A stretch of DNA of 17,695 nucleotides from a virus (taxonomy: Duplodnaviria; Heunggongvirae; Uroviricota; Caudoviricetes). The notes beneath the pieces are model-generated. The model was given only the letters and a program-made list of their open reading frames with translations. It did no database searches and had not been told where the DNA came from. Location of the stretch: positions 1 to 17,695 of the IMG/VR virus record IMGVR_UViG_2778261667_000007, one strand, 5' to 3'. The translations under genes and the position numbers were made by a program. Positions 1 to 17,611 of the stretch are shown here, one piece after another; within the stretch, counting starts at the first letter, position 1; the number at the start of each line of letters is the position of its first letter.

Positions 1-21
1 TACCTCTTGCTTCGGTCTCGT

Positions 22-100
22 CCACATTCTCTCTTTCTTTTTTTTTTTTTTTTTACTCCACCCCACACCCACCATCCTCACCCCCTCTCTTTTCGCGGGC
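22..100 (+). repeat. Polypyrimidine low-complexity tract with a T17 homopolymer (38-54) followed by a C-rich stretch; G-rich on the minus strand
   Basis: Read directly: ctctttc + 17 T + actccaccccacacccaccatcctcaccccctctc. Minus strand carries G runs (ggggg, ggg, gggg). Confidence 0.9.
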
Positions 101-176
101 GGCGTCAGATTTTGATAAGAAACAAAGCAAATACTGAATATGCGTCGGTAAACTTGAAAACAATAGGGGGTGATTC

Positions 177-1859
177 ATGGCAACGAAAGACAAAAACAAA
201 GGCTTTCTGTCGGCATTGAAGAAAGCCTTCAGCGGTGGTGATGTTACGCCCGCCGATCCGGTCGTTTTTACGAGCGGGCATAGTGTCGTTGCTCGTTCCG
301 GCCTGTCCGCTTTACGTCCAGGCATCCTGGGGGGCAACAGCGATGGCATGACGAGTGCAGCAGATTCAATTTCTTTATCCGCTGAACTGCCCGGCGAGCG
401 CCTGCAAAAGTACAACATCCTGGAAACGATGGCTAAAAGCCCGACCATCTCGACGGCTTTAAATATTCACATTGCACATGCGCTTGCACCTTCAAAAAAA
501 ACTGGGCTGGCATTCATGCTTGCGCCAAAAGATGGTGCCGACACTGAGGCGGTAAGTAGATGTGAAGAGTTAACCGCAGATTTGGGGATGATGATTAATG
601 ACGGTCTGCCTTCATGGGCCATGATTATGGCGATATTTGGGGTGTCTTATGTCCGACCTTATGCAGAACAGGGTAGGGGAATAACTGGCATTGAATCCAG
701 TTATTACACTCTGCCACACTTCATCCAGGAATTTTATCGCGGTAGCCAGTTGGTCGGTTTCAGTGGTGATTACATTCTGGATACACATAATTTGCGCAGG
801 GTAATAACAGAACCGTGGAATCTTGTTTCCATGAAAAACCCGTATTGGACGCCGCAGCATAAAGTTATTCCGGTTAGCTACGGCACAAAAGGGTACTCAC
901 TGTTAAGTGATCAGGCTGATAAGCCGTTAATGGAGACGCAGAATTACGGAACGTCATTCCTGGAATACAGTTATGAACCCTACCTGAATTTATGTGCTTC
1001 GCTCGCCGCGCTGAAATCAACGCGAAATAATGCAGCCAAAATTGACCGCCTGATTGCTCTTACGACGAACACACTGGATCCGGTTAATGCGGCGAACTAT
1101 ACGCGTGGCGTCAGCCAGGCATTGAAGCGTCATAGTGACCTGGTGGCGCAAAGGTCGATTAATGCCAACGCTATTCCGACGGTGCTTAACCACCTGATAC
1201 CTGTTATGGGAGATGGGAAGAACGGCATCACCATTGATACGCAATCCATACCCGCAGATATCAGTGGTATAGAAGACGTTATGTTTCATCTCAGGCAGCT
1301 TGCCGCAAGCCTAGGAATCGACGCAACAATGCTTGGCTGGGCTGATCAGATGAGTGGTGGACTTGGAGAAGGCGGCTGGCAGCAAACAGCTATCCAGGCC
1401 GCATTACGTGCGAACTGGATCAGGCAGGCGGCTCAGCGAGCTATTTATCGGCTTCTGGACATTCATCTCGCTTATAAATACGGGAAGGTTTACACCGAAA
1501 AAAACCGTCCTTATGACGTGCAATTCAACTCAATGAACACTGCTATCCAGGAAGAGGAAAACCGAGAACTGGATGCGCGCGCCAACTTTGTTGCTGTCAT
1601 CTCCCAAATTATGGATCAGATCCAGAACAACCCGAAACTGGCTGGTAGTGACGCGTTTATGCGTTATCTGTTCACCGAGCAGTTGCACATCGACGATGAC
1701 ACTCTCAACACCATGATCAAAGAGTTTAAGGCGAATGAATCAGAGCAAAACAACGAGCATGGTATGTACGAATCCGCGCCGTTGTCGCCCGGTGACGATC
1801 CGGAAAACTGGACGCCAGAACAGTTAATAAACTTTGCAAAATTTGTGATGAGCAATTAA
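177..1859 (+). CDS. Putative phage head morphogenesis protein, portal-like (560 aa)
   Basis: Long ORF with ATG at 177 and strong SD aggggggtga 4-13 nt upstream. Immediately followed (13-nt gap, SD ggaggg) by a protease/scaffold-like gene, the usual portal-protease arrangement. Product call is by context and size only; no diagnostic motif identified. CDS is near certain, product is not. Confidence 0.4.
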   Translation: MATKDKNKGFLSALKKAFSGGDVTPADPVVFTSGHSVVARSGLSALRPGILGGNSDGMTSAADSISLSAELPGERLQKYNILETMAKSPTISTALNIHIAHALAPSKKTGLAFMLAPKDGADTEAVSRCEELTADLGMMINDGLPSWAMIMAIFGVSYVRPYAEQGRGITGIESSYYTLPHFIQEFYRGSQLVGFSGDYILDTHNLRRVITEPWNLVSMKNPYWTPQHKVIPVSYGTKGYSLLSDQADKPLMETQNYGTSFLEYSYEPYLNLCASLAALKSTRNNAAKIDRLIALTTNTLDPVNAANYTRGVSQALKRHSDLVAQRSINANAIPTVLNHLIPVMGDGKNGITIDTQSIPADISGIEDVMFHLRQLAASLGIDATMLGWADQMSGGLGEGGWQQTAIQAALRANWIRQAAQRAIYRLLDIHLAYKYGKVYTEKNRPYDVQFNSMNTAIQEEENRELDARANFVAVISQIMDQIQNNPKLAGSDAFMRYLFTEQLHIDDDTLNTMIKEFKANESEQNNEHGMYESAPLSPGDDPENWTPEQLINFAKFVMSN

Positions 1860-1872
1860 CCGGAGGGAAATA

Positions 1873-2871
1873 ATGCAATCACTGAACACTGTTACGGATC
1901 GCTTCTCCCTGGTAGAGAAAATCCGCAAACATACACCACAGAACAACCGAAATTACGTTATTCAGTCTGTTCGTGACACATTCAACTCGCCAGAAACAAA
2001 AGAGCGCATTGCACTTGGTGAGATGTATGGTTATTACGGTCATGGTCGTCGAGCGATGCACTATAACAAAACGAAAAGCCTGAACCTGCCGGAAGTCTCT
2101 GTTGTGATGGTTGATGGAAAACCTGTTGTATTGGAGAACGTGCCATCAAACAGGACTATCGACATTTCGATTGACGACAACGGCATTGTTACGCATACGC
2201 AGGAAATACTGGATACAGACACCGGGCGCATTGTTCAGGGCATGATTAATTCTGGTGCCGGTGGTTGGTCATGGGCTACATCTGGCCCAGATTCATCTGT
2301 ATCCCTGGTAAAGTCTTTCCACGGCTTTGATTACGTAACTGTGCCTAACTATATCAGTCTGGACAAGAAAAGCCTGATGCTGGAATCAGCAGAAGAGCGC
2401 GACGCGGCTATTCATGCGGCACTTATCGAACAAGGTTTTACGGATAACGCGGCTACGGATCTGGTTCACCACTTTTCAGCAATGAAGAGTCAGCAAGCAA
2501 TGCTCGAATCTGCACATCGTGAAGCTTTGGAATCTGAATTGATGCTCCTTGAAGTAGAAAACATACAACTTCGAGATAAGCTGCGCGCTCAAACAGCGAT
2601 GATGGAAAGCCAGGGTGAAAACGCAAAGCAATGCCGCCGGATTTTGCGTGACGCTATCCAGGAACTGCCAGTCTTTATCAGTGCAGAACAGCGCCGGGCG
2701 CTCTGCCGTATGCAGTCTGAAGATGATGCTCGCATAGTGGCTGCGATGCTTGAATCTTTGGGGGCAAATGCGACTTATGGCTTACCGGTATCAGGCAAGA
2801 AAGAGCCGGAGTTATCACCGAAGGAGAATAAAAATACCACACCATTAATCTTCGTTTCACGAAGGGTGTGA
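1873..2871 (+). CDS. Putative prohead protease / scaffold-like protein (332 aa)
   Basis: ATG at 1873 with SD ggaggg. N-terminal half has His/Ser-containing motifs (GYYGHG, GGWSWATSG) compatible with a prohead serine protease; C-terminal half is a predicted coiled coil (LESELMLLEVENIQLRDKLRAQ), scaffold-like. Operon ends at the terminator at 2985-3010. Confidence 0.4.
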   Translation: MQSLNTVTDRFSLVEKIRKHTPQNNRNYVIQSVRDTFNSPETKERIALGEMYGYYGHGRRAMHYNKTKSLNLPEVSVVMVDGKPVVLENVPSNRTIDISIDDNGIVTHTQEILDTDTGRIVQGMINSGAGGWSWATSGPDSSVSLVKSFHGFDYVTVPNYISLDKKSLMLESAEERDAAIHAALIEQGFTDNAATDLVHHFSAMKSQQAMLESAHREALESELMLLEVENIQLRDKLRAQTAMMESQGENAKQCRRILRDAIQELPVFISAEQRRALCRMQSEDDARIVAAMLESLGANATYGLPVSGKKEPELSPKENKNTTPLIFVSRRV

Positions 2872-2874
2872 TTG

Positions 2875-2900
2875 CGTTGAAAAATTAAATTTCTAACATA
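2875..2900 (-). promoter_or_regulatory. Recurrent motif copy 1 (minus orientation): TATGTTAGAAATTTAATTTTTCAA
   Basis: Reverse complement of 2875-2900 reads tatgttagaaatttaatttttcaacg, near-identical to the motif at 16362-16384 (tatgttagaaaactaattttccaa). Confidence 0.4.
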
Positions 2901-2917
2901 GTGTATTTATATACACT
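2900..2917. promoter_or_regulatory. Perfect 7-bp inverted repeat AGTGTAT-ttat-ATACACT, candidate dimeric regulator site; three GATC sites follow at 2921-2949
   Basis: Read directly; a related half-site (GTGTATAAATCCACTG) lies at 3011-3026 on the other side of the terminator, and GTGTAT recurs at 17641-17646. Confidence 0.3.
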
Positions 2918-2984
2918 GTTGATCCTGGTAGATGGGATCGAGTAGGATCGCGGTCACTGCTCCGGTAGCGACGGCTAAAAAAGC

Positions 2985-3010
2985 AAAAGCCGCTGAGAAG
3001 CGGCTTTTTG
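2985..3010 (+). terminator. Rho-independent terminator (bidirectional-looking)
   Basis: Stem gccgct (2989-2994) / agcggc (2999-3004), loop gaga, then TTTTT (3005-3009); the A-run upstream (2985-2988) gives a U-tract on the opposite strand too. Confidence 0.8.
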
Positions 3011-3070
3011 GGTGTATAAATCCACTGCCATAGATTTATACGGTAGATAGATTTTTCACGGAACTATCTG

Positions 3071-4033
3071 ATGAGTATTTTAAATTCAGTTCCAGTAACT
3101 TTCAACACTTCTGAGTATAAAAACAACACTGAATACCACAAAAAAATCAAAGGTCATCAGTTGAGTTTTTTTGCTCGTCATAGCGGTTTTCTTTCCCCTT
3201 CACATAGCGCCATTATTGCCGAGTTCGCCAACCTGGCAGGGGCTACCGATGAATACATGATCCGTCGCTCATATGCTGATATGTCCGAGATTACAGGACG
3301 CAGTATTTCTACTGTGCGCCGGGCATTTACCGAAGCGACGAAGTGCGGAATGCTTGTTAAGCAGCATCAGGTAGCGAATAACAATGCTCAGGTGTGTAAC
3401 GTGTACCGGTTTACAACACAATTTCTCCACTTCATTCATATTGCAATGGAGATAGGGGGTAAGCAGGGCATCAAATTTGCCAACGCCACAAAACTGGTTA
3501 AGCAGTTGATTTCAAAAGTTCGTTATTTTTTTGAAACTGGGAACCCCCTGTTCAAATTGAACAAGCCCCCCCATGTTCAAAATGAACAGCCAATAGAAAA
3601 TAAGAGTCACTCTATAGCCAAAAGAAGAGAAAGATCATGCGCGGTTCAGCCAAAGGCTTCACCAGCAGATAGTTCTCAAGCGGATAATGGGGGGCTGGAT
3701 AAAAAAACAGTAATCAGGGAAGAACATACCAACCACTGCCTGGCGGCGGCAAAAGCGAGAGCTGCAAAGCGTCGTTCAGACGAGGGGCACGCAAAACGGC
3801 AGGCTCTGTATCGTACCGCTGAAAAGCTGGCAAAAAAATTTGCATGGATACGTAGTGCCGCTACCGCAGTGAATAAGCCTAAACAATCCAGTGCCCTGGA
3901 TTTCTCAATGGATTATTCTGGCTCCCAGGGATGTGCAACCATTGGTGAAGCCTTTGACCTGATGAAACAGCGTGGCTATCGGTCTGAATTTGACCGTGAG
4001 GATTGGTCAATACCTGCGGGATTTAGGGGGTGA
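3071..4033 (+). CDS. HTH DNA-binding protein (320 aa), candidate replication initiator or regulator
   Basis: Helix-turn-helix-like segment ITGRSISTVRRAFTEATKCGMLV; basic, low-complexity C-terminal half. The coding region contains two palindromes separated by poly-C (3549-3586). Weak SD at the start. Confidence 0.5.
   Translation: MSILNSVPVTFNTSEYKNNTEYHKKIKGHQLSFFARHSGFLSPSHSAIIAEFANLAGATDEYMIRRSYADMSEITGRSISTVRRAFTEATKCGMLVKQHQVANNNAQVCNVYRFTTQFLHFIHIAMEIGGKQGIKFANATKLVKQLISKVRYFFETGNPLFKLNKPPHVQNEQPIENKSHSIAKRRERSCAVQPKASPADSSQADNGGLDKKTVIREEHTNHCLAAAKARAAKRRSDEGHAKRQALYRTAEKLAKKFAWIRSAATAVNKPKQSSALDFSMDYSGSQGCATIGEAFDLMKQRGYRSEFDREDWSIPAGFRG
3549..3586. repeat. Two adjacent palindromes inside the 320-aa CDS: TGTTCAA-a-TTGAACA (3549-3563) and TGTTCA-aaa-TGAACA (3574-3588), each preceded by a C-run
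   Basis: Read directly from sequence ccccctgttcaaattgaacaagcccccccatgttcaaaatgaacag. Confidence 0.85.
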
Positions 4034-4086
4034 CCTGTGTGTCTACAAAACATCCCAATGATCGGAAAATGCTCGTTCGATAATTT

Positions 4087-4116
4087 GTGTTAGAAAATTA
4101 ATTTGCCGTTTCTAAA
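4087..4116 (+). promoter_or_regulatory. Recurrent motif copy 2: GTGTTAGAAAATTAATTT, with inverted partner TTTCTAA (7-bp arms TTAGAAA / TTTCTAA)
   Basis: Read directly; lies about 60 bp upstream of the predicted immI promoter. Candidate operator for a global repressor. Confidence 0.4.
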
Positions 4117-4171
4117 TCAGAATGTATGATCTGCATCATCGATTAAAGTCATCCATTGCTGAAATTTTTAG

Positions 4172-4200
4172 TTGATCTTCCATGTTTTCAGGCTTATATT
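4172..4200 (+). promoter_or_regulatory. Sigma70-type promoter (TTGATC - 17 bp - TATATT) for the c4-like / icd / ant transcript
   Basis: -35 TTGATC 4172-4177, 17-bp spacer, -10 TATATT 4195-4200; predicted TSS near 4207. Confidence 0.5.
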
Positions 4201-4299
4201 CATGCCGTCGTAGCAAATTCTGCGACCGGGTTTGACAGCCTGAATACTTACGCGGACAACCGCACATTTCCGATATTGCGGTATTTTTGTGTCCGTAAA

Positions 4300-4390
4300 A
4301 CCACGTTACGCCCGAATTATGGTGGGGCGTGATGGGGAGGCTTCGGCCTGCTGGTTTCGTAAGTGCCAGTCTGTCAACCCTGTCACGTCC
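4300..4390 (+). ncRNA. c4-like antisense regulatory RNA (immI-type); ends approximate
   Basis: Element b' CGTAAGT (4358-4364) is the exact complement of ACTTACG in the upstream leader (4246-4252) and at the icd-like SD (4429-4435); a' CTGTCAA (4371-4377) is the exact complement of TTGACAG at 4232-4238 and 4401-4407. This a1b1 - b'a' - a2b2 layout matches the P1/P7 immI architecture. Flanking hairpins: acgccc/gggcgt (4308-4330) and a UUCG tetraloop stem (4338-4349). Confidence 0.5.
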
Positions 4391-4446
4391 TGCCACCTGT
4401 TTGACAGCGGGTCGCAGGTTGTTTATCAACTTACGAGGCCGTAACT

Positions 4447-4671
4447 ATGGTTAATGCCAATCCTTGCTCACGTCCAGAATTCATCTGGCGTTTCCACTCT
4501 CTGCAAAAACACTGCGATCATTTCGCAATTGCCGCAACCGAAAAAGAAGCCCGTTCTCTGATCCCTGATCAACATGGCGTCCTGACTGGCCGTTTCTCTA
4601 CTTCCTCACAACCAAACACTAATCCCTGGTATCGCAATATTACCAATCCCGGCATTGCGGAGGCACACTGA
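4447..4671 (+). CDS. Icd-like small protein (74 aa), first ORF of the immI-type operon
   Basis: ATG 4447 with SD gagg (4434-4437) lying inside the b2 target element; stop TGA overlaps the next gene's ATG (TGATG at 4669-4673), indicating translational coupling as in P1 icd-ant. Confidence 0.5.
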   Translation: MVNANPCSRPEFIWRFHSLQKHCDHFAIAATEKEARSLIPDQHGVLTGRFSTSSQPNTNPWYRNITNPGIAEAH

Positions 4672-5378
4672 TGGAAATCTGCATTCTTGAAAAGCCATCA
4701 ATGACTAGCATTGAGATCGCGGAGCTGGTGGGAAGTCGTCACTCTGATGTTAAACGCAGCATCGAAAGACTTGTTGCTAAAGGAATTATCCAACATACGC
4801 CATTGGCTACAGTTGAGAATAATCAATCACTTAGCCCTAATAAATACACAAAAGCCTATTTCTTCGAAGGCGAACAAGGCAAACGCGATAGCATCATTGT
4901 CGTCGCGCAGCTCTCTCCGGAATTCACCGCCCGGCTGGTGGACCGCTGGCGCGAACTGGAAGAACAAGCACGCCAGCCGTTGACCGAAATAGAGATGATC
5001 GCCGCAATGGCTGCAAATGCAGTTCAGCAGCAAAAGCGGCTTCATGCTGTTGAGTCAAAGGTTAGCCAGGTCGCTGAAACCGTCGAGAAAATAAAGAAAG
5101 GCAATATTCCGGAAGGTTACATTGGCTACCGCCAGTTGGCGGCGAAATGCGGCCTGACTGAAGCCAAATGCCGCAACCTTGTCAACGCTTACCGGATCCC
5201 CACCGATACACATGAGTTTTTAACTCCCGAGGGGGTATTGTCGCGTCGTTCCATCGTGGCCTTATCTCCCTTCATGAATGCTTTTAACCGGATGATGTCG
5301 GAGGCTGAACACCGAGGAAAACGCTGGTATCACCCCAAAATGGGGCAATTCCAGGTGATCGGTTGGGGAGGTGAGTGA
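4671..5378 (+). CDS. Rha-family phage regulatory protein / putative antirepressor (235 aa)
   Basis: N-terminus MTSIEIAELVGSRHSDVKRSIERL matches the Phage_pRha signature (TS..IAE..GkRH.dV.R.I..L). Start overlaps the stop of the upstream small ORF. Confidence 0.6.
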   Translation: MEICILEKPSMTSIEIAELVGSRHSDVKRSIERLVAKGIIQHTPLATVENNQSLSPNKYTKAYFFEGEQGKRDSIIVVAQLSPEFTARLVDRWRELEEQARQPLTEIEMIAAMAANAVQQQKRLHAVESKVSQVAETVEKIKKGNIPEGYIGYRQLAAKCGLTEAKCRNLVNAYRIPTDTHEFLTPEGVLSRRSIVALSPFMNAFNRMMSEAEHRGKRWYHPKMGQFQVIGWGGE

Positions 5379-5575
5379 TGGACATCATGCAGGCGGTAAA
5401 AAAAATCAGGGAAGGACAGGCTGAAGTGTGCCGCCGTAAAGCATGGAGTGTTGGTGTATGGGCCTGGCCTGATAATTACTCTACTACCGGATGGTTTTGT
5501 ATTAATGGACTCCAGATCCGGGAAGTTGATTTATCGACGGCTGATATAGTCGGTAATGATTGGATCGTGACTTGA
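5378..5575 (+). CDS. DUF2829-like small protein (65 aa from ATG 5378; ORF track gives GTG 5375), possible Tad2-like anti-defence sponge
   Basis: Pattern IMQAVKKIREGQAEVCRRKAW ... VDLSTADIVGNDWIV resembles the DUF2829 consensus (FGEALEALKAGKKVARKGW ... DLLAEDWEIV). GGAGG SD at 5367-5371 sits 6 nt before ATG 5378; ATG overlaps the upstream stop (TGATG). Confidence 0.5.
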   Translation: MDIMQAVKKIREGQAEVCRRKAWSVGVWAWPDNYSTTGWFCINGLQIREVDLSTADIVGNDWIVT

Positions 5576-5583
5576 AGCGTGAT

Positions 5584-5607
5584 GCCCCGGCCAGGCCGGG
5601 GCTTTTT
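5584..5607 (+). terminator. Rho-independent terminator shared by convergent genes
   Basis: Stem gccccgg (5584-5590) / ccggggc (5596-5602), then TTTTT (5603-5607). The T-run overlaps the stop codon of the minus-strand peptidase gene. Confidence 0.75.
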
Positions 5608-6092
5608 CATGCCTCATTAGTTGAGGTTGCTGCGTCTCCGAATGGTAACAGAGCGGTATTGCGTGGTTCGCCAGCAGGCCAGCGATAGCCAGACACTCTT
5701 GATGTTGGGAATGCGCGAATATTAACCGCATCCCCCTGGTTCCCACCCAAGACAAGCAGATCGCCATTGGCGCGGCGTCCGACAACAAAGCCTACGTGCC
5801 CACCGCCTACGCGGGTAAATACAACGATACATCCGTATGCCGGTGTATCTAATTTCTCGCCCCAATCCAGATAGGATTTTGCCGACTCAAATCTTGTTGA
5901 GCGGATGCCTACACGTTCCAGCATTGCACCGACAAATGCTGCGCACCACGGCGTTTCATCGTCTTTAATTCCGCCGCGCTTGATGTCGCGCCAGAACTGA
6001 ACGATTTCAGGGTTGTGTTTAGCGCCTTTTATTTCAGTCAGGCCAATGTGCTTACGGGCTTCAATTAGCCAGCGAGGTTCAATGTTTGCCAT
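5607..6092 (-). CDS. CHAP / NlpC-P60-like peptidase (TIGR02594-like phage protein), putative cell-wall hydrolase (161 aa)
   Basis: Conserved-looking Cys and His motifs (DETPWCAAFV, GGGHVGFVVG, LVLGGNQGDAVNI, GYRWP). SD ggag 8 nt upstream of ATG 6092. The start lies within about 20-40 bp of the predicted IS right end. Confidence 0.6.
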   Translation of the reverse strand: MANIEPRWLIEARKHIGLTEIKGAKHNPEIVQFWRDIKRGGIKDDETPWCAAFVGAMLERVGIRSTRFESAKSYLDWGEKLDTPAYGCIVVFTRVGGGHVGFVVGRRANGDLLVLGGNQGDAVNIRAFPTSRVSGYRWPAGEPRNTALLPFGDAATSTNEA

Positions 6093-6104
6093 ATTTTTCT
6101 CCCG

Positions 6105-6330
6105 GTCATGGGTTAATAAGTAGGCAAACTATGGGGAGTATGTGATTTTGACGGTAGTATCGTCCCCGTGACTACTCCCCGCTCTGTCTGGCGAGGCTTC
6201 CCACTTCTTAGGCAGCAACCGTCTGTATGACGGATTTACGCTGGCCTCCATGGACAGAAACGACGAGTCCCGCCGCCTGTAGTTCCAGTATTCCTTTTTG
6301 CCGGATATTGAGCGCCGCATTGATGTCGCG
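6105..6330 (-). ncRNA. Candidate omega-RNA (reRNA) guide scaffold of TnpB, overlapping the tnpB 3' end and IS right end; extent approximate
   Basis: Established architecture of IS200/IS605 elements (omega-RNA derived from the tnpB 3' end and RE) plus the multi-stem structure seen at 6134-6181. Not confirmed by covariance model. Confidence 0.3.
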
Positions 6331-7383
6331 ATCATGTTCAATACTGCATTCCGGGCATCGCCAGATGCGTTTATGAAGCGGCATTTCCGGCATTTTGTAA
6401 CCACAACAATGGCACGTTTTCGAACTGGCAAACCACTGGTCGAGTTTTACCAGGTGAACGCCTTTTTCCGCTGCCTTGTACTCCAGCTTTGTGATGAAGC
6501 TATGCCAGCCTGCATCACCTATCGCTCTTGCCAGATTGTGGTTTTTCATCATGTTGGCTGTTTTCAGCGTCTCGACAATTACCGCTTGGTTTTCGTCAAC
6601 AATTGCACGAGAGAGCTTGTGTTGAAAATCAGCACGGGCATTAGCCACCCGTTCGTGTAACGCTGCCAGACGGATTCTGGCCTTTTTACGATTCGCGCTT
6701 CCCTTTTGCTTGCGGGATAAGGCTTTTTGTTTGCGTCGCAAATTACGGCTGGCATTGATGAGATGGCGGGGATTTGCAATTTTTACCCCATCAGACTTGA
6801 TGGCAAAGTGCGATAATCCCATATCTATCCCCGTCACGCGGGATATCATGGAAGGTCTGGCTGGCGTTTCCATGCCATCATCGCAGAGTAGCGATGCATA
6901 ATATTTCCCCGTCGCAGAACGAGTGATAGTGATGCTTTTCAGCTTTCCATGAAGTTCACGATGAAGGCGTGCCTCAATCGGGGAAAGTTTGGGGATTTTG
7001 ATGGCATTATCCAGCACCTTAACTCCGACACAGTGATAGCTGGATTGCCAGCCGTTCTTTCTCTTGAAAGTCGGAAACCGGGCTTTCAGCTTCGGATTAA
7101 AAAAGTTGGAAAATGCCACATCAAGATTAATTACCGCCTGTTGCAATGCCATTGAATCAAACTCTTTGAGCCAGGCATACCTGCGGGACTTTTTGGCCAC
7201 AGACAACAACGGTTTCAGATCGTTACGCGGACTTAAATTTACTCCGTGTCTCTGGTAAGCATGTTTTTTGATGTGAAGAGCTTTATTGTACGCAAAGCGT
7301 ACCGCGCCGAACTGGGCATTGAGATACTTTGCCTGTTCCGGTGTTGAATAGATGCGTACTTTTGTTGCTCTTAACATAGTCAC
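6208..7383 (-). CDS. tnpB: IS200/IS605-family TnpB (RNA-guided RuvC-like nuclease), 391 aa
   Basis: RuvC-I (TGIDMGLSHFA), RuvC-II (VIVETLK), zinc finger (CHCCGY ... CPECS) and RuvC-III (HDRDINAALNI) in canonical order. Start is GTG at 7383 or ATG two codons later (7377). Confidence 0.9.
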   Translation of the reverse strand: MTMLRATKVRIYSTPEQAKYLNAQFGAVRFAYNKALHIKKHAYQRHGVNLSPRNDLKPLLSVAKKSRRYAWLKEFDSMALQQAVINLDVAFSNFFNPKLKARFPTFKRKNGWQSSYHCVGVKVLDNAIKIPKLSPIEARLHRELHGKLKSITITRSATGKYYASLLCDDGMETPARPSMISRVTGIDMGLSHFAIKSDGVKIANPRHLINASRNLRRKQKALSRKQKGSANRKKARIRLAALHERVANARADFQHKLSRAIVDENQAVIVETLKTANMMKNHNLARAIGDAGWHSFITKLEYKAAEKGVHLVKLDQWFASSKTCHCCGYKMPEMPLHKRIWRCPECSIEHDRDINAALNIRQKGILELQAAGLVVSVHGGQRKSVIQTVAA

Positions 7384-7571
7384 TGCTCATTGGTACAGGT
7401 TTTTATGCTAACACCGTAATAATATTTTTAAAGCCCTGTGGGCTTTTCCGCCGTTCCTCCCCGCCAGCACTGGGCGAGGGTTCTCGGCGGTTTTCGCTGA
7501 AAATAACATTCTCCATACCCTCTCAACCGTACCGCATAGCGGAATTTTTACGGTTTAGAGGGGGAAATCCT

Positions 7572-10500
7572 TTGGACAAACTACTTCATTCAATCAGTGA
7601 AGCCTCCAGCTTAGGCGAACTGATTGAGATTGTTAGTCGGTTGCATAAATTACGTGCTGTTGCGACCTTTGGTGTCAGGAAAGCCGATGGCGTCAGTATT
7701 CAGAAAACACGCCGGGCAGCAAACAACGCCGCAGTAAATCTTCTTAATTCCCTTCCTCCCGGTTTCGATGGGGCGAAATTAACTGACGAACAACGTCAGA
7801 TTCTTGCCGGGTATACCGGTGAAGGCGGCCTGACAGATGGTGAGGGCAGCCAATACGAATACTACACGCCACAGTTTATGGCTGAAGGTATATGGGATCT
7901 GTTTGCTGACTACGGTATTGATGGCGGGCACGTACTGGAACCATCAGCGGGCACAGGTATTTTCCAGGAGACAAAACGGCAGGGCATGATAATGACCAGC
8001 GCCGAACTGTCTCCGATTTCCGGTCGAATAAACCAGCTTTTGCACCCGGAAGACGATGTGAATATCGGGGCGTTTGAGGCGCTGGCGGCGAAAGACGCAA
8101 TGTATGATCACGCTGTTGGTAACGTACCGTTTGGTGAAGGGCGTTCCGGTGTCGCCGGGCTTGATCCGGCATATGCAAACGAGAAGAACGTTGGCAATTA
8201 CTTTGTGTTGCGCACGATCGACAAGGTTAAGCCTGGTGGACTAATTGTATTGGTGGTGCCGAATGGCATGACCGATGGTACGAAATACAAAAAATTGCGC
8301 GATAAAGTCAGCCGTAAAGCGGAATTTTTGGGCGCACATCGTATGCCTTCTGGTACGTTCAGCGAATCTGGTACAGATACCGTGGTGGACGTATGGGTAT
8401 TGCGTAAACACCCGGAAACCTTCCTGGAGATGATCCCCGACACGGATGATGCAATGCTCAAATCGGCAAACGTCCTTTGGGATACCTTCCTCAAAGGGAA
8501 ATGGTTTACAACCGAAGGGAAGCGATTTGTTTACGGCGACATGGAACGCACCAGCTTCCGCAATACCCTGGTGGTGAAAAAGGACGGTCGTGTATCCAAT
8601 GAGTCGATGAAAACCGCGTTATCACGCCGCTTTGAAAGCCGTATTAATTGGGATTTGCTCGGAGTAACTACCCAGGCATGGCAGGGCGCAAAAGTAGGGG
8701 ATAAGCGTCTTGTAGGCGGTATCTGGCATGAGTTTGATGGCCTGAAATGGGTTAAGGACACGACAACCGAATCCTCCGCGCTTGATGTAAGTCGATATGG
8801 TGTTTCGACGTTTGGCGATCTGCAGATCGCGTTCCAGTCAACAAACGGGATTCTGGCTTTGTCATGGGACCAGATATCGGCGATCGCGTCCGACTATCCA
8901 TCGGTTGTCAGTGATGAAGTGGCAGCAATGATTCGCTTTGCTGGCAAACAGCGAGAAAAAGACAGGGAGCGCGTTATGCGCGGTGCGTTGATAGGGCAGT
9001 TGATCAACAAGGCACTTGATTTGCGTAACCTGGGGGTGAACGTTGATGACAAACTGGCAGATGCATCCCGCCTGGCGGCAGCAGAAGTTGCGAAGTATGG
9101 ACCACCGCACGCGATTAAGCTGAATGGGCTTGCAGAAGCTGGAGCTAAAAACTGGATGACGTTCACTGGCAACGTGAAACAGGATGGTTCCACTTCTGAC
9201 CTTCTGGCAGGGCGACTTGATGTAACGGATGGTGCTGCCGGTATTGACTTTACACGTCCTGAACAAGTGATAGCACATCTTTTCAGTGATGTAGCCCTTA
9301 ATCCTATAACGCTGGGCGACTTTCGTGAGGCGTTTGCTGGTGAACTGCCAGAGGACGACGACGCGGCCCTTGAATACCTGGCGAAATTTGATGATATCGC
9401 TATTGATGGGTATGGCTGCCTGCTGCTGATGGACCGCGCCACCAGCGGCGATATTGCAACCAAAACAGCATTGCTGATGGGCTGGCGTGATGCGTCAACA
9501 GGTGAGCAGAAATCGAACTTTGAGCGTCAGTTGGCGAAAATCGAAGAGAAACGCATTTTCACGCCACTAAATAAAGTCACCGTTAATCTGAATGCCCGCT
9601 GGCTGGATCGCCGTTTGATAAAAGAGTTCCTGGCAGAGCAGGGCTATGACGAGTTTAAGTACACTGAACCTGATCTGAAGGTCGTCGATGGCATTCTGGT
9701 ATCTCCGGACGATTACGAAGGTAAGGACGGTGTATTTACCGGCTATCAGCTACGAACCGTAAACGGCAAAAACGGGAATGAGTTCAAGAAGGCCAACAAT
9801 AAAGACGGCTTCCTGAACCAGTTAGAAAACTACCTGAACGGCGTCAAACCGCGCGGGCAGAACGCTAACGAGTACCTGGATAAGATTGCTCAACTTGAAG
9901 TTAGCTTTAACGACTGGTTACGCACCCACCCGCAGGCTGATCAGATAGCCCGTGACTATAACGACGCATTCAATGGCTTCATTCCGTTCACGCACTCTAA
10001 CGCACCGCTTGGCCTGGAAGGGATTAGTGGAAAGCGCATTCCTCTGACTTATCAGAATGAAGAAGTTCGGCGCTTGTCAGAAGATGGGCGCGGCATCATG
10101 GGATTTGGTACCGGGCTGGGTAAAACCACGACCGCGCTTGCGCTTGAGGCGTATAACTTCGAAACAGGTCGCACTAAACGCACGTGTATTGTTGTTCCGA
10201 AGGCGGTTTATCAGAACTGGTATCACGAGGCACAGAGCTTCTACAGTGCTGATGCCTTCGCCAATATGATGTTTATCGGTCTGGATGAAGTTCGTGATGA
10301 AGACGGCAATATTCTGACCGCGCCGGTGCTTGATGAAAATGGCGAACCCCGCCTGGACAGTAACGGGCAGCCTCTTACCCGCAATGTGGTGAAAGAATCC
10401 GCCAGCGCAGTTATCGTTCAGCGCATGAACATGATCCCGTCGTCAAATTGGCGAACGGTCATCATGACGAAAGAGCAATTCGCGTCTATCCCGCTACGAG

Positions 10501-13500
10501 AAGAAACCATTGAGGAAAACTCACAGCAAGCTGTCTTTAATGCTGTGGAAATGGGGCGTCTTGACCTGGCGTCCGGTAAACACCGTGACGCGCAGAAGAA
10601 GAACAAGATTAAGGATCAGGCAGCAAATACCGGTACAACGAAGAAGCAGAATATCCCGTACTTTGAGGATATGAACTTCGATAGCGTGATTGCCGACGAG
10701 GGGCATAACTACCGAAACTCCTTTAATGCCGGGCGTGAAGCGGGACAACTGGCATATTTGCCTAACCCGGCAGTATCCAAGATGGCCCGCGACATGGCTG
10801 TAAAAGCTGCGTACATGATGAAACGCAACAACGGGCGCGGTGTAGTCATGCTGACGGCAACTCCGCTGGTGAACAGTCCGATTGATGCCTTCAACATGCT
10901 GTCTACTGTCATTCCGCAGGAAGAGTGGATGCGCATGGGCATCATTACGCCTGATGATTTCGTTCGTGTGTTTGGCAAAACAGCAACAGTTCAGGTTCAG
11001 AAAATTTCCGGTGAGGTGGAAGAGAAGCAGGGGCTGGTGGGCTTCCAGAACCTGGACGGTCTGCGTGGTATTTTCCATCGCTGGACTACTCTGAAGAATG
11101 CTGCGGACGTCGGGGCGACGGTTAAAATCCCCGACATCATCGAGAACACCTTGCAGATCCCGATGACAGGGGAGCAGGAGACTGCTTATGAAGAACTTCG
11201 TAAGCGTGCTCAGGAGTTAAGTCGCAATGATGAGCTGACAGTCGATGAAAACGGGCATATCACTAACGACAAACCGGATGATTTCATCTTCTCCATCATC
11301 CGTGACATGGATAAGGTTGCTATAGACCCGGATCTGTATGCCAGTGCGATTACATTCCAGTTCCCCGTTGAGCTTGCAGACCAGGTAAAAGCTATTGCTG
11401 ATGCCTTGCCAAAAGTAGCTGGCGGTAAAGTGGCAGATGATGCAGACGAGGTCGAAGAAGATGGCGCTGGTGGGCTGGTCAGTACGCGTACCAGCAAGGT
11501 AGTGAAGACCACCTTTAGTGAACATCCGGCGCATGTTGAAATACGCGCCAGCATTGAACTGGAAACTGAAATACTGAAGGCCATTGCGGCTGCCGGTATT
11601 GATATGCAGCAGGTATCGCACCCCATCCCGCCGAAGTATGCCGCGCTGATCGAAAATCTTCGTGAAGGTCTGAAGAACGGTAAGCAGATCGTCTTTATTG
11701 ATGAAAAAGCCCAGCACCAGAAGCTGCGCCGTATTATCGCCAGTGCACTGCAAATGCCGGAGCAGGAGATAGGCATTATCAATGCGACGACCGTTAGCCA
11801 GGCTGGTGGCATCAAGCTGAAGAAGGTGAATAAGCCGACTGAACCTACTCTGAATAAAAACGGTGAATACAAAGAAGGGGCATGGGAAACCTACTACAGC
11901 AAACTTGCCCAATATGAGGATTATCTCTCAGCTAAAAATGATGCTGGCCTTGAGGGTATGGAAGGCATTGCCGCCGACTATAACGAAGGTCGCACGCGCA
12001 TCATTATCTGTAACAAGAAGGCTGAAGTAGGTATTAACCTGCATATCGGGACAACCGATATCCACCACCTGACACTACCCTGGACACCAGCCAGTATCGA
12101 CCAACGAAATGGGCGCGGTGCGCGCGTAGGTTCACCGCAAGAGAAGGTCAATGTTCACTACTACTGTGGCAAAGGCACATTTGATGATTTCCGCCTGGAT
12201 ACGCTGAAACGCAAGAAAGACTGGATCAAGATGGTGATGACCTCCGACATGTCAGAGATCGCCAATGGTGATGCGGATGATGCAGATGAACGCGCCATTA
12301 TGCTGGCAGCAAATCCGGAAGAGCGCCGCGCAATCATGGCCCGTCAGGCGCAAGAGCGTGAAGAACGCCTTAAACTGAAAGCGCAGCGCGAGGCCGGTAA
12401 TGCTCTTGATAACTACCTGAAAGCGGCTAATGCTGCCGGGAAAGATATCGGCATGATGGAGACAGAGCTGAAAAGCGCGATGGAGCAGGTAGAGCATTAC
12501 CAGCGCAATCTTGACGACCTGATAAAAGCGGGGACGAACAGGAACGGGCAAAAATATGTTCTAGAACAGTTGCGAGACTACAGAAAACGCGCGCGGGAGC
12601 TGCGGTTTGCTATCACCAGAGCAAAAGACGCTGATACCGTTATGAAACGCTCTCGCGGTGATCTGGAACGAGCCATTAAAGCCGGTATTCTGGAGCTTGA
12701 TGCCGATGTATTACAAAACCCACAGGAATATGTGCGAACTGAGAAAAATATCTTGTTGCACAAGGGCAGCCATTATCGAGCGATCATCGATGAGAATCAC
12801 AACACAACAGCAATTGTTCGTGTGACAGACATTGATGCGGAAAGAGGCGGATGTACTTGCCGCATATCCTGGCTGGATGTGGCTAGTCGTTACTCTCGCT
12901 CCCCCGGGACAGCATTGTATTTACCCTTTAACTTGATAATTGAAGCTGTATCTTTTGAAGAAGGAGTTGCTGAATCGCGTGAAACAGCCGCACGCGGTGT
13001 TCAGAGTCACCAATTATCAACAACACTTACTCGCGCTCAGTTCTATGATGCCATTCGAAATGGAGTCATGAAGGTTACCACCGGCAAGCCTGGTTTGGCA
13101 TGGGGCGGTGGGCAAGCGATTAAATACTGGGCCTATCGCACCGACGATGGTCAGATCGCTCTGTCAACGGCCTATGATGGCGTGATAGGCCAAAAAATCG
13201 GGCGAGCATCGGATATAGCACCTGAACGATGGATATATCCAGATGGCAACGATGAGGCGCTGAAGCGTGAAGTGGCAAAAATACAAGCCAGTGATAACCC
13301 GCTGAATATCGTGGACGGTGAGGGATTCCTCCAGGCATTGTATGGATATGATTACATCCAGGGAATGCAGGCATGGGGAGCGCAAGCCACAATGGATGAT
13401 GTTACCCAGGAATTTGAAAACTGGATGGCAGGGCGTGGTCTTTCTGGTCGTTCGCTTAACAAAGTCACGTCTGAAGATATTCTTAGCCTGTTCCGAAAAC

Positions 13501-14411
13501 CGTCCGGAGAAGGTCTGGAATTATTCTGGAAGACCGTGGTGGCATACCGTTTATTCCGGGGCAGGATGAAAGCCTTTAGCAACACTGATGACATTGAACG
13601 GATGTTTAATCAGGTGAAGGTCGCGAAAATTACGGCGAAAATCGAGAAGACACGAGCTGCGCTGGTGGCCTGGCGCGATGCATTGTTTGAGCAATATAAA
13701 TCACTCAGTGATGCAGATGGATGGGCTGCACTGGAACAGTTGGCGAATAATGGGGTAGATGGAGCGAAACTCGCCATTGTTCAGGCTGATAACCCTCTGG
13801 AATCACCGGCAGCACAATGGATTAAGGTGGGGGCTGTCATCAATGCATTTGATGAGAAACACATTAGTAAAGACGATTTTGCTGATGCTGTTTCTATTAA
13901 TCGCCTGGTAGAAATGGCTACCCGCCGCGCCCGTGAGTTGAAAGACGGTGACTATGTGAATGAGTTGCCGGATGCGCTCAAATCAGCAACGTGGCAAGAC
14001 TATGTATCGCTGAAAAACGGCGGTGCTACCGAATCAGAGATCGCTAAAAGACTTGAGCAGGTTGAAAGCAAAAGAGAAGAGCAGGCGGCAGTGGCTGACG
14101 CCAGAGCTGATGAAGCGGCGAATGATGACTATATCATTGTGGTTAATGATAAGCCGATTCGCGCTAAGGCGCGTGTTCGCGGGCGCTGGTGGAGCGTCAG
14201 CGAGGACGTCGGTGCGGTTTATCTCATTGCCGACCAACCTGGTTCCTCGACAATACGGAACGCCAAAGACGCGATTAAGAAGATTGGCGGGCGTTTCTGG
14301 AATTTTGAAGTAAACCCGGTTGCTGATGTGAACTTTGACCGTCCGGCATGGATGGTATCTACGCGTTACTCGGTAGATGAACTGCGTAAAATAATCGCCG
14401 ATGCGGCCTAA
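7572..14411 (+). CDS. Giant N6-adenine methyltransferase / SF2 helicase fusion (2279 aa), DarB-like antirestriction protein
   Basis: MTase motif I EPSAGTGIF (nt ~7938-7964) and motif IV NVPFGEG (~8121-8141); helicase Walker A GFGTGLGKTT (~10101-10130), DExH VIADEGHNY (~10692-10706), motif III TATP, motif VI QRNGRGARVG (~12103-12132); coiled coil and a ~600-aa C-terminal extension. TTG start at 7572 with SD agaggggg 8 nt upstream. Size and domain order resemble phage P1 DarB (recalled, not searched). Confidence 0.7.
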   Translation: MDKLLHSISEASSLGELIEIVSRLHKLRAVATFGVRKADGVSIQKTRRAANNAAVNLLNSLPPGFDGAKLTDEQRQILAGYTGEGGLTDGEGSQYEYYTPQFMAEGIWDLFADYGIDGGHVLEPSAGTGIFQETKRQGMIMTSAELSPISGRINQLLHPEDDVNIGAFEALAAKDAMYDHAVGNVPFGEGRSGVAGLDPAYANEKNVGNYFVLRTIDKVKPGGLIVLVVPNGMTDGTKYKKLRDKVSRKAEFLGAHRMPSGTFSESGTDTVVDVWVLRKHPETFLEMIPDTDDAMLKSANVLWDTFLKGKWFTTEGKRFVYGDMERTSFRNTLVVKKDGRVSNESMKTALSRRFESRINWDLLGVTTQAWQGAKVGDKRLVGGIWHEFDGLKWVKDTTTESSALDVSRYGVSTFGDLQIAFQSTNGILALSWDQISAIASDYPSVVSDEVAAMIRFAGKQREKDRERVMRGALIGQLINKALDLRNLGVNVDDKLADASRLAAAEVAKYGPPHAIKLNGLAEAGAKNWMTFTGNVKQDGSTSDLLAGRLDVTDGAAGIDFTRPEQVIAHLFSDVALNPITLGDFREAFAGELPEDDDAALEYLAKFDDIAIDGYGCLLLMDRATSGDIATKTALLMGWRDASTGEQKSNFERQLAKIEEKRIFTPLNKVTVNLNARWLDRRLIKEFLAEQGYDEFKYTEPDLKVVDGILVSPDDYEGKDGVFTGYQLRTVNGKNGNEFKKANNKDGFLNQLENYLNGVKPRGQNANEYLDKIAQLEVSFNDWLRTHPQADQIARDYNDAFNGFIPFTHSNAPLGLEGISGKRIPLTYQNEEVRRLSEDGRGIMGFGTGLGKTTTALALEAYNFETGRTKRTCIVVPKAVYQNWYHEAQSFYSADAFANMMFIGLDEVRDEDGNILTAPVLDENGEPRLDSNGQPLTRNVVKESASAVIVQRMNMIPSSNWRTVIMTKEQFASIPLREETIEENSQQAVFNAVEMGRLDLASGKHRDAQKKNKIKDQAANTGTTKKQNIPYFEDMNFDSVIADEGHNYRNSFNAGREAGQLAYLPNPAVSKMARDMAVKAAYMMKRNNGRGVVMLTATPLVNSPIDAFNMLSTVIPQEEWMRMGIITPDDFVRVFGKTATVQVQKISGEVEEKQGLVGFQNLDGLRGIFHRWTTLKNAADVGATVKIPDIIENTLQIPMTGEQETAYEELRKRAQELSRNDELTVDENGHITNDKPDDFIFSIIRDMDKVAIDPDLYASAITFQFPVELADQVKAIADALPKVAGGKVADDADEVEEDGAGGLVSTRTSKVVKTTFSEHPAHVEIRASIELETEILKAIAAAGIDMQQVSHPIPPKYAALIENLREGLKNGKQIVFIDEKAQHQKLRRIIASALQMPEQEIGIINATTVSQAGGIKLKKVNKPTEPTLNKNGEYKEGAWETYYSKLAQYEDYLSAKNDAGLEGMEGIAADYNEGRTRIIICNKKAEVGINLHIGTTDIHHLTLPWTPASIDQRNGRGARVGSPQEKVNVHYYCGKGTFDDFRLDTLKRKKDWIKMVMTSDMSEIANGDADDADERAIMLAANPEERRAIMARQAQEREERLKLKAQREAGNALDNYLKAANAAGKDIGMMETELKSAMEQVEHYQRNLDDLIKAGTNRNGQKYVLEQLRDYRKRARELRFAITRAKDADTVMKRSRGDLERAIKAGILELDADVLQNPQEYVRTEKNILLHKGSHYRAIIDENHNTTAIVRVTDIDAERGGCTCRISWLDVASRYSRSPGTALYLPFNLIIEAVSFEEGVAESRETAARGVQSHQLSTTLTRAQFYDAIRNGVMKVTTGKPGLAWGGGQAIKYWAYRTDDGQIALSTAYDGVIGQKIGRASDIAPERWIYPDGNDEALKREVAKIQASDNPLNIVDGEGFLQALYGYDYIQGMQAWGAQATMDDVTQEFENWMAGRGLSGRSLNKVTSEDILSLFRKPSGEGLELFWKTVVAYRLFRGRMKAFSNTDDIERMFNQVKVAKITAKIEKTRAALVAWRDALFEQYKSLSDADGWAALEQLANNGVDGAKLAIVQADNPLESPAAQWIKVGAVINAFDEKHISKDDFADAVSINRLVEMATRRARELKDGDYVNELPDALKSATWQDYVSLKNGGATESEIAKRLEQVESKREEQAAVADARADEAANDDYIIVVNDKPIRAKARVRGRWWSVSEDVGAVYLIADQPGSSTIRNAKDAIKKIGGRFWNFEVNPVADVNFDRPAWMVSTRYSVDELRKIIADAA

Positions 14412-14447
14412 CAGATAAGGAGCGGCCCCAACCGGGGCCGAATTTGA

Positions 14448-14882
14448 ATGACGACATTAATTGACACTGTAAAACCGACGGAATCCTACCTTGAGGACAT
14501 TTTGCCGCAGGCGCTCAATGGCAGGAGTGAAGAGGCGTTTCTGGATGCATATCTGAATGGCATGGTGGAAAGGCTGAAACGAGATCCACAGCTTTATCAC
14601 CTCTATGGGCCGTGGTGGCCTGCGCTTAAAACGTTATTGCTGGAGCGCGGCGACATATCATTTGGACAAGTTGTAGATAGTGATGTGGCAGAGATCTACA
14701 AAATGAGTCGCCCGGCGCTTACGGTTTTAGCCGGGCATCTGTATTCGAGCGAGCGCCTGGAAAATGACGCGGTATACAATCCCGTTCATGCTCTGGAAGT
14801 TGCACCTTATGCTGATGATACAGAGCCATACGTATACACAAGTTACGATGAGTCCATAGAGAAGTATCGAATCATGGGGTAG
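14448..14882 (+). CDS. Hypothetical acidic protein (144 aa)
   Basis: ATG 14448; 24 acidic versus 12 basic residues. Sits immediately downstream of the DarB-like gene, with a GC-rich hairpin (14423-14440) between an SD (aaggag, 14417-14422) and the ATG. Confidence 0.6.
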   Translation: MTTLIDTVKPTESYLEDILPQALNGRSEEAFLDAYLNGMVERLKRDPQLYHLYGPWWPALKTLLLERGDISFGQVVDSDVAEIYKMSRPALTVLAGHLYSSERLENDAVYNPVHALEVAPYADDTEPYVYTSYDESIEKYRIMG

Positions 14883-14884
14883 CC

Positions 14885-15145
14885 ATGCGAAAGAACCGTA
14901 AGTTTACGCTCGAAGACCTGAAGGAATATTCCACATCGAAGGGGTATGTCCTTGAGTTCCACCGTTACAAGAAGGTTTTTACACTGCGAAAAGCAGAAAA
15001 ACCTGCGGCCTGGAGCTGGGTATACTTCCCTCATACAGAAGACAAACTGGTAGAGCTTGTTGACGATTTAACCTACGAAGGTTGGTTGTTCGCAATCGAC
15101 AGGACAATCAGAGAAATATCCGAACCGGATAAAATAAACCTTTAA
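14885..15145 (+). CDS. Hypothetical protein (86 aa)
   Basis: ATG 14885, 2 nt after the upstream stop, so likely translationally coupled; no recognisable motif. Confidence 0.5.
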   Translation: MRKNRKFTLEDLKEYSTSKGYVLEFHRYKKVFTLRKAEKPAAWSWVYFPHTEDKLVELVDDLTYEGWLFAIDRTIREISEPDKINL

Positions 15146-15281
15146 AAATAACAAGTTGGGTAAATGCCATGCGATTTGCCCTCCTTGTTGATTAAGGTCA
15201 CTCTTTACTCTAAAAGCAAATCCGACCTGTTGCATATAGCCCATCCTTGAGTAGTATCTCTCTTGTTTTACAAATCTAACG

Positions 15282-15776: not shown

Positions 15777-15790
15777 ACGGAGAAATCGTT

Positions 15791-16287: not shown

Positions 16288-16294
16288 CTGCTCA

Positions 16295-16322
16295 AAAACC
16301 CGCCGATTAGCGGGTTTTTTGT
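16295..16322 (+). terminator. Rho-independent terminator
   Basis: aaaa-cccgc-cgatta-gcggg-tttttt: 5-bp GC stem, 6-nt loop, six-T run (16315-16320). Confidence 0.85.
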
Positions 16323-16361
16323 TTATCACATCTTTCGATCCTGTTCTCATGCTAATAAAAT

Positions 16362-17610: not shown

Positions 17611-17611
17611 T

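Follow-up and report, generated by a model that had tools for sequence, protein, structure and literature searches.

The subject of this analysis is X, a small protein encoded in a 17,695-nucleotide stretch of Caudoviricetes DNA (IMG/VR record IMGVR_UViG_2778261667_000007, positions 1 to 17,695; the whole stretch is called the window). The gene lies at 5378-5575 on the + strand of a D6-like phage-plasmid and is the last of an operon that resembles immI of phage P1, with a C4 antisense RNA, an icd-like leader and an antirepressor-like protein, Ant. Our data indicate that X is very probably a remote member of the Tad2-like (DUF2829) fold family, of minimal size, and comparison with its relatives places it as the counterpart of the C-terminal domain of a longer, fused Ant. 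With respect to function, we lean tentatively to the reading that X is a detachable module of the antirepressor unit. It would then act in the antirepression pathway as a binding or assembly module, an oligomer-forming Tad2 scaffold that either serves Ant in trans or itself contacts a C1-type repressor, and it would not soak up the known signals of Thoeris, CBASS or Pycsar as a free sponge.

The open reading frame (ORF) of X starts with ATG at 5378-5380 and stops with TGA at 5573-5575, giving 65 amino acids. The A of this ATG is shared with the stop codon of ant (TGA 5376-5378), which forms the sequence TGATG, and the ATG of ant (4671) shares one A with the stop codon of the icd-like ORF (4669-4671) in a second TGATG at 4669-4673. 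The coordinates, the length and both overlaps given in a first-pass annotation of this DNA were thus correct. On reading the sequence, a GGAGG Shine-Dalgarno motif for X is found at 5367-5371 (+), 6 nt 5′ of the ATG and within the 3′ end of ant. X is a real gene and not a chance ORF, because it matches phrog_7385 (E 1.7e-49), is identical to orf17 of Escherichia phage D6, also at the nucleotide level, has homologues at 31-45% identity that share invariant residues, and is under purifying selection where it is fused. The invariant residues are I10, G13, C18, R19, R20, W23, W28, P31, D56, D61 and W62, and the copy in the window carries every one of them. The two conserved blocks that the first-pass annotation described are present, with a spacing slightly different from the one it gave: they read A6..K9...G13.....R19R20..W23 and D51L...D56....D61W62IV. 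A promoter-like match within X (5379-5406) was rejected, since such matches occur at chance level (three sites found, 2.6 expected).

The X family is found almost only behind C4 RNAs and takes three forms, split, fused and alone. In the split form, which is that of the window, the order is C4, icd, ant, X. In the fused form, represented by D6 orf82 and its relatives (308-313 amino acids), the X domain makes up the last 65 residues of Ant and is joined to it by a proline-rich linker. Ant and X of the window are collinear from end to end with D6 orf82 and with the fusion at locus L034, at 57-60% identity in the winged helix, 50-52% in the middle part, 83% in the conserved C-terminal domain of Ant (AntC), 8% at the junction and 43% in X. 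The fusion P0005 aligns with positions 124-431 of the 431 in phrog_63 ('anti-repressor Ant'), that is, to the last position of the profile, and its residues 254-312 also match phrog_7385; Ant of the window matches the same profile (E 2.7e-46) from position 124 and ends at 358. X therefore corresponds, as judged from these alignments, to the C-terminal domain of the long Ant, and Ant and X together are the split version of one two-part protein. A read-through or programmed frameshift product of ant and X was considered for the window and ruled out: a TGA at 5372-5374 closes the frame of X and leaves no possibility of a fusion product there.

The fused protein belongs to a second immI module, found at 2809-3965 of locus L053 (D6 71120-77986) and at 1793-3198 of L034, in which an isrK-like element replaces a1b1 and is followed by a C4 RNA and an icd-like ORF of the module's own and by the long Ant. 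D6 has both modules (orf19-18-17 and orf83-82), and in most D6-like viral contigs there are two copies, separated by about 40 kb. The C4 loop and target sequences differ between the two modules of D6-like genomes, and one genome therefore has two locks of different specificity. In the fused proteins, the ratio of nonsynonymous to synonymous polymorphism (pN/pS) of the X domain is 0.1-0.2 at pS up to 0.7, and that of AntC is 0.03-0.11. These ratios indicate that the fused X domain is under purifying selection. That the window should hold, in split form, a protein that is kept fused under purifying selection in the sister module is one point in favour of an antirepressor module.

The family assignment was approached with profiles and with structure prediction. 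DUF2829 is PF11195 and is the Tad2-like family, as the first-pass annotation had stated. PF11195 is the top Pfam match of X and is covered over profile positions 1-72 of 73, which bears out the proposed kinship in rank and extent; the score of 15.2 bits (E 0.032) stays below the gathering threshold of 25. The best score in the family is that of P0007 (23.9 bits, E 2.5e-5 to 6.2e-5), and 8 of 11 members match the profile at E <= 1. Among PDB sequences, the solved Tad2 chains were matched neither by the hidden Markov model of the family at E <= 10 nor by phmmer. When the family was compared by hhalign with thin alignments of full-length Tad2, the probabilities were only 30% and 11%, because a long variable insertion in Tad2 splits the alignment. 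With this insertion cut out, the Tad2 core aligned with the X family end to end over 62 columns (probability 61.6%, score 26.4); 150 column shuffles, used for calibration, scored 10.1 +/- 2.2, and none of them reached the observed value. The divergent Tad2 homologues #80 and #69 (Hadary et al. Table S2) gave 76% and 78% probability, respectively, and by sequence they would act as intermediates between the X family and Tad2.

Structure prediction agreed with these results. A single-sequence AlphaFold model of X was poor (predicted local distance difference test, pLDDT, 60.7) and was set aside. A model made with AlphaFold2 from 11 family sequences only, with no Tad2 sequences in the input, reached a pLDDT of 83.4 and was confident in one of five models. 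Its elements (helix 3-11, strands 18-20, 27-31, 39-43 and 46-50, helix 54-58, strand 62-64) follow the topology of SPO1 Tad2 without the loop helix alpha2, that is, a helix, four strands, a short helix and a strand. In a Foldseek search of the PDB, the top 14 matches were all Tad2 (probability 0.84-0.97, template modelling score 0.54-0.59, E about 0.1), and the probability of the next match dropped to 0.14. In BFVD, the top matches were nearly all 'Thoeris anti-defense 2-like' or DUF2829 proteins (probability 0.97-1.0), among them DUF2829 proteins of 60-72 amino acids from other phages. Tad2 is thus the nearest solved fold and Tad2-like proteins are the nearest viral models, in line with what the first-pass annotation expected of such a comparison. 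No structural match to Tad2 had an E-value below 0.001; the lack of a single strong E-value is as expected for a protein of 65 residues. The relation of X to Tad2/DUF2829 is real but remote.

This fold invites a different reading, in which X is a free sponge of the Tad2 type, a small oligomer that sequesters a nucleotide immune signal, and its fusion to Ant results from an accidental loss of a stop codon. We regard this as possible and somewhat unlikely. The Tad2-like fold, supported by sequence and structure, speaks for it, as do the short DUF2829 proteins of other phages. The gcADPR (glycocyclic ADP-ribose) pocket of HgmTad2 consists of W21, N22, G23, W87, L88, S90, T92 and D93, and binding is lost in the mutants W21A/N22A and S90A/T92A/D93A; the equivalents in SPO1 Tad2 are W25, N26, W73, S76, T78 and D79. 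In the hhalign register, the ligand-contacting W21 (SPO1 W25) and D93 (SPO1 D79) align with W23 and D56 of X, both invariant across the family, which again favours a sponge. The rest of the pocket argues the other way. N22 corresponds to S24 (S, P or H across the family), G23 is deleted and the loop is one residue shorter, W87 corresponds to V50 (V, I, F or Y), T92 to A55 (A, E or N), and S90 is conserved only in part (S53; S or A). Two of the seven residues of the pocket for gcADPR and His-ADPR (histidine-ADP-ribose) are therefore kept in the X family.

The second pocket of Tad2 is formed by the beta2-beta3 insertion, which binds cyclic dinucleotides in HgmTad2 and SptTad2 and cyclic UMP (cUMP) in MoTad2. 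The insertion has 41 residues in HgmTad2 and 24 in SPO1 Tad2, where it also contains helix alpha2, a part of the dimer contact. In X it has shrunk to about 8 residues (PDNYSTTG), and the second pocket and helix alpha2 are missing. Known Tad2 signal sponges are homotetramers with pockets at the protomer interfaces. The tested proteins closest to X, #80 and #69, were inactive: #80 (73 amino acids) did not inhibit type I or type II Thoeris, CBASS of E. albertii or Pycsar of Bacillus (0 of 4 systems), and #69 (80 amino acids) inhibited none of 7 defence systems, in a screen in which canonical Tad2 homologues were mostly active (Hadary et al. 2025). The proposal of the first-pass annotation that X is a sponge is weakened by these observations. 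A role as a sponge for the known signals appears unlikely, because the pocket is largely gone, the insertion is reduced and the nearest tested homologues are inactive; the same observations count in favour of an antirepressor module. Since the Tad2 homologues are versatile and bind many signals through more than one pocket, X may possibly be a sponge for a signal outside the known set. We do not class X as a Tad2 sponge because its Pfam score lies below the threshold and only two residues of the pocket are kept.

The distribution of the family bears on both readings. Searches yielded 13 clusters among 5.8 billion proteins and, by exhaustive phmmer, 7 representatives among 1.84 billion, and a word-indexed search with the single sequence of X found only 3 proteins. 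One of the 7 representatives, P0004, was rejected as a spurious PKD-repeat protein that matched through low complexity only, and three partial matches of 21-34 residues in environmental metagenome-assembled genomes, which lack a C4 RNA, were discounted as relatives. Among plasmids, 109 PLSDB entries contain the family, nearly all of them D6-like. X is thus a lineage-specific accessory with two to three diverged paralogues per genome, as might be expected of an anti-defence protein. A C4 RNA lies upstream in all 14 enterobacterial loci with enough flanking sequence, and C4 control is therefore the most conserved property of the family. The first-pass annotation had placed X under the control of a c4-like RNA, and this held: Rfam finds a full-length C4 RNA and its a1b1 element in the window, each above its gathering score, every relative with enough flank lies behind a C4 RNA, and in two lineages X is the sole first ORF after it.

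These two lineages have stand-alone cassettes of a1b1, C4, X and a terminator, without icd or ant. One is at 3752-4291 of locus L002, on a plasmid of Raoultella ornithinolytica, and the other at 3746-4237 of L003, a 90-kb contig. In both, the complement of the C4 a′ loop lies 9-13 nt 5′ of the ATG of X, and the pairing sequences are unlike those of the window. The two X proteins are only 38% identical to each other, and the X-only arrangement is therefore old. By analogy, X as the sole product of the C4 lock would hold the place that icd and ant hold in P1, which we count for a role in antirepression. The survival of X without Ant in several lineages can equally be read in favour of a sponge. 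A recent loss of ant is seen in a deletion variant in E. coli (L049, 2623-3198), where X is retained behind C4; C4 is followed there by a truncated icd of 59 amino acids and an 83-residue X′ with the change P31Q. In this and other variants of the fused module (L036, L038-L042), ant is deleted or frameshifted and the X domain is intact and in frame. One member of the family, P0007, is extended at its N-terminus by 25 residues, which look like the linker found in the fused form.

The split copies themselves were compared in 16 sequences, the window and 15 related loci. Variable sites in X comprise 14 nonsynonymous and 4 synonymous sites, against 9 and 27 in AntC of the same genomes (Fisher p 3.5e-4). 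The counts for icd and the first 100 codons of ant were not used, being inflated by allele mosaicism and possible indels. Of the nonsynonymous changes, 5 of 14 fall in residues 22-26, the loop of the Tad2 pocket, and some variants alter the invariant G13 (G13E) or the nearly invariant G26 (G26D). Such a pattern could reflect relaxed constraint as well as diversifying selection. An excess of nonsynonymous changes with a cluster in the pocket loop has the look of an arms race and would suit a sponge, but the clustering is not significant (p about 0.1), and a sponge would also have to be reconciled with purifying selection on the X domain while it is fused to a DNA-binding protein of 250 amino acids.

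Relaxed constraint could also mean that the split copy is a decaying remnant, a detached piece that has lost its function and drifts, and is intact only because the split is recent. The nearly neutral ratio in X, the changes at G13 and G26 and the frameshifted or truncated copies in a few assemblies (P0002, 52 amino acids; P0003, 56; P0008, 31) support this explanation. The broken copies suggest either that X is dispensable for plasmid maintenance or that the assemblies contain errors. We consider a remnant improbable. All 16 split sequences have a full-length open frame, the Shine-Dalgarno motif, the TGATG coupling and the terminator are intact, and the copy in the window has all family-invariant residues. 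X is also identical in nucleotide sequence between the window, D6 and five other contigs, though ant differs from that of D6 at 90 of 708 positions, and stand-alone copies in other genera persist down to 31-40% identity.

The differences in ant are concentrated in the codons of winged-helix residues 24-63. At the protein level, nearly all of the 30 differences between Ant and D6 orf18 lie in this one patch of the Rha winged helix (4740-4860), and between window and D6 the C-terminal 140 residues of Ant are nearly identical and X is fully so. The patch looks like a specificity segment that was exchanged or evolves fast.

Several observations weigh against an antirepressor module. Its partnership with Ant or with a repressor is something that we infer. 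Antirepressors of the Rha type outside the D6 lineage have no X domain (tblastn of X against 50,697 phage records found D6 only, in two records), and Ant therefore does not generally need X. X has survived in the X-only cassettes and the deletion variant L049, where Ant is missing, and most members of the ancestral family are small proteins that stand alone; both points would suit an autonomous function, for example that of a sponge. The relaxed or diversifying evolution of the split copies described above points the same way, and signal sequestration is the sole activity shown experimentally for the Tad2 fold. In its favour, besides the points already made, it has been shown for plasmid-like phages that ORFs of 156-183 nt can encode small, non-proteolytic antirepressors (PMC10432266).

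Two further functions were considered. X could be a ligand sensor, a Tad2-like domain that binds a small nucleotide and switches Ant on or off, so that the prophage reads an immune or stress signal of its host. This would agree with the fusion or coupling of a known ligand-binding fold to a regulator of the switch between lysis and lysogeny, and with the conservation of W23 and D56. Most of the pocket is not conserved, however, and ligand binding is hypothetical; the X-only cassettes have no Ant to regulate, and C4 RNA already gates the entire unit. We judge a sensor to be the least probable of the readings. There is a slight chance, smaller than that of a remnant, that the Tad2-like module is the domain with which Ant reads nucleotide alarms, from a defence system or stress pathway of the host, to tune its activity or induction, or that X alone is a new antirepressor with a sponge fold. 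What probability remains goes to other functions.

The operon of the window runs, in order, putative promoter, a1b1, C4 RNA, b2/a2, icd-like ORF, Rha-type ant, X and terminator, all on the + strand, and its three ORFs are joined through the TGATG overlaps. Two sigma-70-like matches at 4103-4130 and 4172-4200 lie at the position of promoter P51 of P1. They match by consensus only and are no more numerous than expected from shuffled sequence; a role as promoters is suggested by their position. The a1/b1 target of C4 RNA is at 4194-4246 (Rfam RF03163, 55.9 bits against a gathering score of 46.7, E 5.4e-12), and the C4 RNA gene is at 4315-4400 (RF01695, a full-length match with 69.6 bits against 45). 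The b2 site TTGACAG at 4401-4407 is an exact 7-nt complement of the C4 loop at 4371-4377, and the a2 site ACTTACGA at 4429-4436 is an exact 8-nt complement of the C4 loop at 4357-4364. The a2 site lies 11 nt 5′ of the ATG of icd and abuts its GAGG Shine-Dalgarno motif. L002, L003 and L034 have equivalent pairs of complementary loop and target sequences that differ from these and co-vary. The icd-like leader ORF (4447-4671, 74 amino acids) matches phrog_1426 (E 3.3e-39), and its counterpart in D6, orf19, is annotated as Icd-like. The ant gene (4671-5378, 235 amino acids; D6 orf18) encodes a Rha/Roi-type antirepressor-like protein (PF09669, 34.4 bits against a cut-off of 29.9) with an N-terminal Rha winged helix, a helical middle part and AntC. 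The terminator at 5584-5607 begins 9 nt past the stop codon of X and closes the operon; it has a stem at 5584-5602 with 8 G-C pairs and a loop of 3, followed by TTTTT.

In P1, C4 pairs with a2/b2 and blocks translation of icd, and thereby that of ant. If the window follows P1, C4 pairing with a2/b2 in the lysogen would shut off icd and hence ant and X, and X would be produced only in a burst when the DNA enters a cell that lacks matching C4, or once C4 control is overcome. The icd-like protein, Ant and X would then be produced together, X roughly in step with Ant, with its translation reinitiating at the stop codon of ant. For a sponge, too, a place at the end of an immI operon would be suitable, since a protein made in the early burst after infection and off in the lysogen has the timing of an anti-defence protein.

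In nucleotide comparison, the region 4100-5700 of the window is 94% identical over its full length to D6, a P1-related plasmid prophage. It is about as close to some 100 non-mobilizable plasmids of E. coli, Salmonella and Shigella, which are about 90 kb in size. With P1, P7 and their relatives, the match of this region is confined to the c4 region at 86-91% identity; for P1 and P7 it covers query positions 88-459 only, which comprise the c4 region and the very start of icd. The counterparts in D6 are orf20 (repL-like), orf19 (icd-like), orf18 (anti-repressor, 'similar to HK97 Roi'), orf17 (hypothetical; X), orf16 (peptidoglycan hydrolase, on the opposite strand) and orf15 (darB-like). The repL-like lytic replication gene of the window (3071-4033, +; phrog_2418; equivalent to orf20) lies directly 5′ of the operon, whereas repL of P1 lies downstream of ant. 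Between the peptidoglycan hydrolase and darB-like genes, the window has an IS605-family TnpB gene at 6208-7383 (- strand; OrfB_IS605, Cas12f1-like TNB and HTH_OrfB_IS605 domains). This gene is an insertion in the element of the window, because D6 has none at that position. A DarB-like protein of 2279 amino acids with N6-methylase and SNF2/helicase domains is encoded at 7572-14411 (+) and adjoins the immI region. DarB-like proteins have a known antirestriction function of the P1 type, and the neighbourhood therefore already has one counter-defence gene.

A 66-amino-acid ORF at 15791-15991 (+; phrog_7206), just 3′ of a VRR-NUC gene at 15282-15776, aligns with the X family without large gaps and has the G13, RR-x-x-W23 and DDW motifs in common with it (hhalign 56-72%; score 25.2, against 9.4 +/- 1.6 in 100 shuffles). 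It had no Pfam match and no direct profile match with the Tad2 core. This ORF may represent a third X paralogue, very diverged and outside C4 control.

We found no literature that links DUF2829 or Tad2 with antirepressors, C4 RNA or phage-plasmids, and D6 orf17 is annotated as hypothetical only. If X is a partner of the antirepressor, a sponge fold has been recruited into the switch between lysis and lysogeny, and the 'Tad2-like' annotations now spreading in phage genomes cannot all be read as anti-Thoeris. If it is a sponge, no smaller type of Tad2 would be known, and its gene would be the first with an anti-defence role for which a lock by a C4 antisense RNA is shown; X would be made only in the first minutes after entry and be silent in the lysogen, because expression there would disarm the host on which the prophage depends. 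If it is a domain that reads alarms, a plasmid prophage would couple the immune alarm of its host to its own decision on induction. Split, fused and stand-alone forms all occur in tractable phage-plasmids of E. coli (D6 grows on C600), and the question is directly testable.

Among known systems, Tad2 (SPO1 gp34.65, HgmTad2/AcrIIA7, SptTad2, ModTad2) is likewise a small phage protein with the same order of elements, an N-terminal helix, four strands, a short helix and a last strand. It shares with X the N-terminal pattern hydrophobic-x-x-A-x-x-x-[IL]-x-x-G ... R-x-x-W and the C-terminal pattern D-x-x-x-x-D-W-x-[IV]. X differs in its length (65 amino acids, against 85-104 in Tad2), in its insertion of about 8 residues without alpha2 and without the pocket for cyclic dinucleotides or cUMP, in a WNG loop that is one residue shorter and has S, P or H for N, and in V, I, F or Y in place of the second pocket tryptophan. 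The X family also has invariant C-R-R and W-x-W-P motifs of its own, and, unlike Tad2, X lies within a C4-controlled antirepressor operon and some of its copies are fused to the antirepressor. The proteins #80 and #69 (Hadary et al. 2025) resemble X in the N-terminal block RR-x-x-W-P-x-G, and #80 also in its short body and the tail [ST]-x-D-x-x-x-x-DW. They differ in coming from environmental viral contigs and in having been called Tad2 by an HHpred probability above 0.9, and #69 keeps the pocket motif P-W-x-x-[ST]-x-x-D, which X lacks.

The immI regions of P1 and P7 (c4, icd, ant1/ant2) also have C4 with a1b1 upstream and b2/a2 downstream, followed by an icd-like leader ORF whose translation is coupled to that of the gene after it. 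The antirepressor of the window is of the Rha/Roi type (PF09669, phrog_63), in contrast to Ant1/Ant2 of P1, with which it did not show homology. X is a third coupled cistron, and a D6-like genome has two modules with different C4 specificities. A further likeness is to D6 orf82 and phrog_63, since Ant and X together equal orf82 from the first to the last residue, the junction excepted; the difference is that the protein of the window is split into two coupled cistrons and that its X part is 43% identical. The modules of transcription factor and small ORF (TF-smORF; Silpe et al. 2023, PMC10432266) are comparable in that they, too, encode tiny proteins of plasmid prophages under tightly gated expression. 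They are activated by a transcription factor, whereas X would be released from an antisense RNA, and their products have no detectable domains, in contrast to the Tad2-like fold of X. The products of the TF-smORF modules switch the prophage to lysis, and their action on the repressor is demonstrated (PMC10432266); an action of X on a repressor is, by comparison, our hypothesis.

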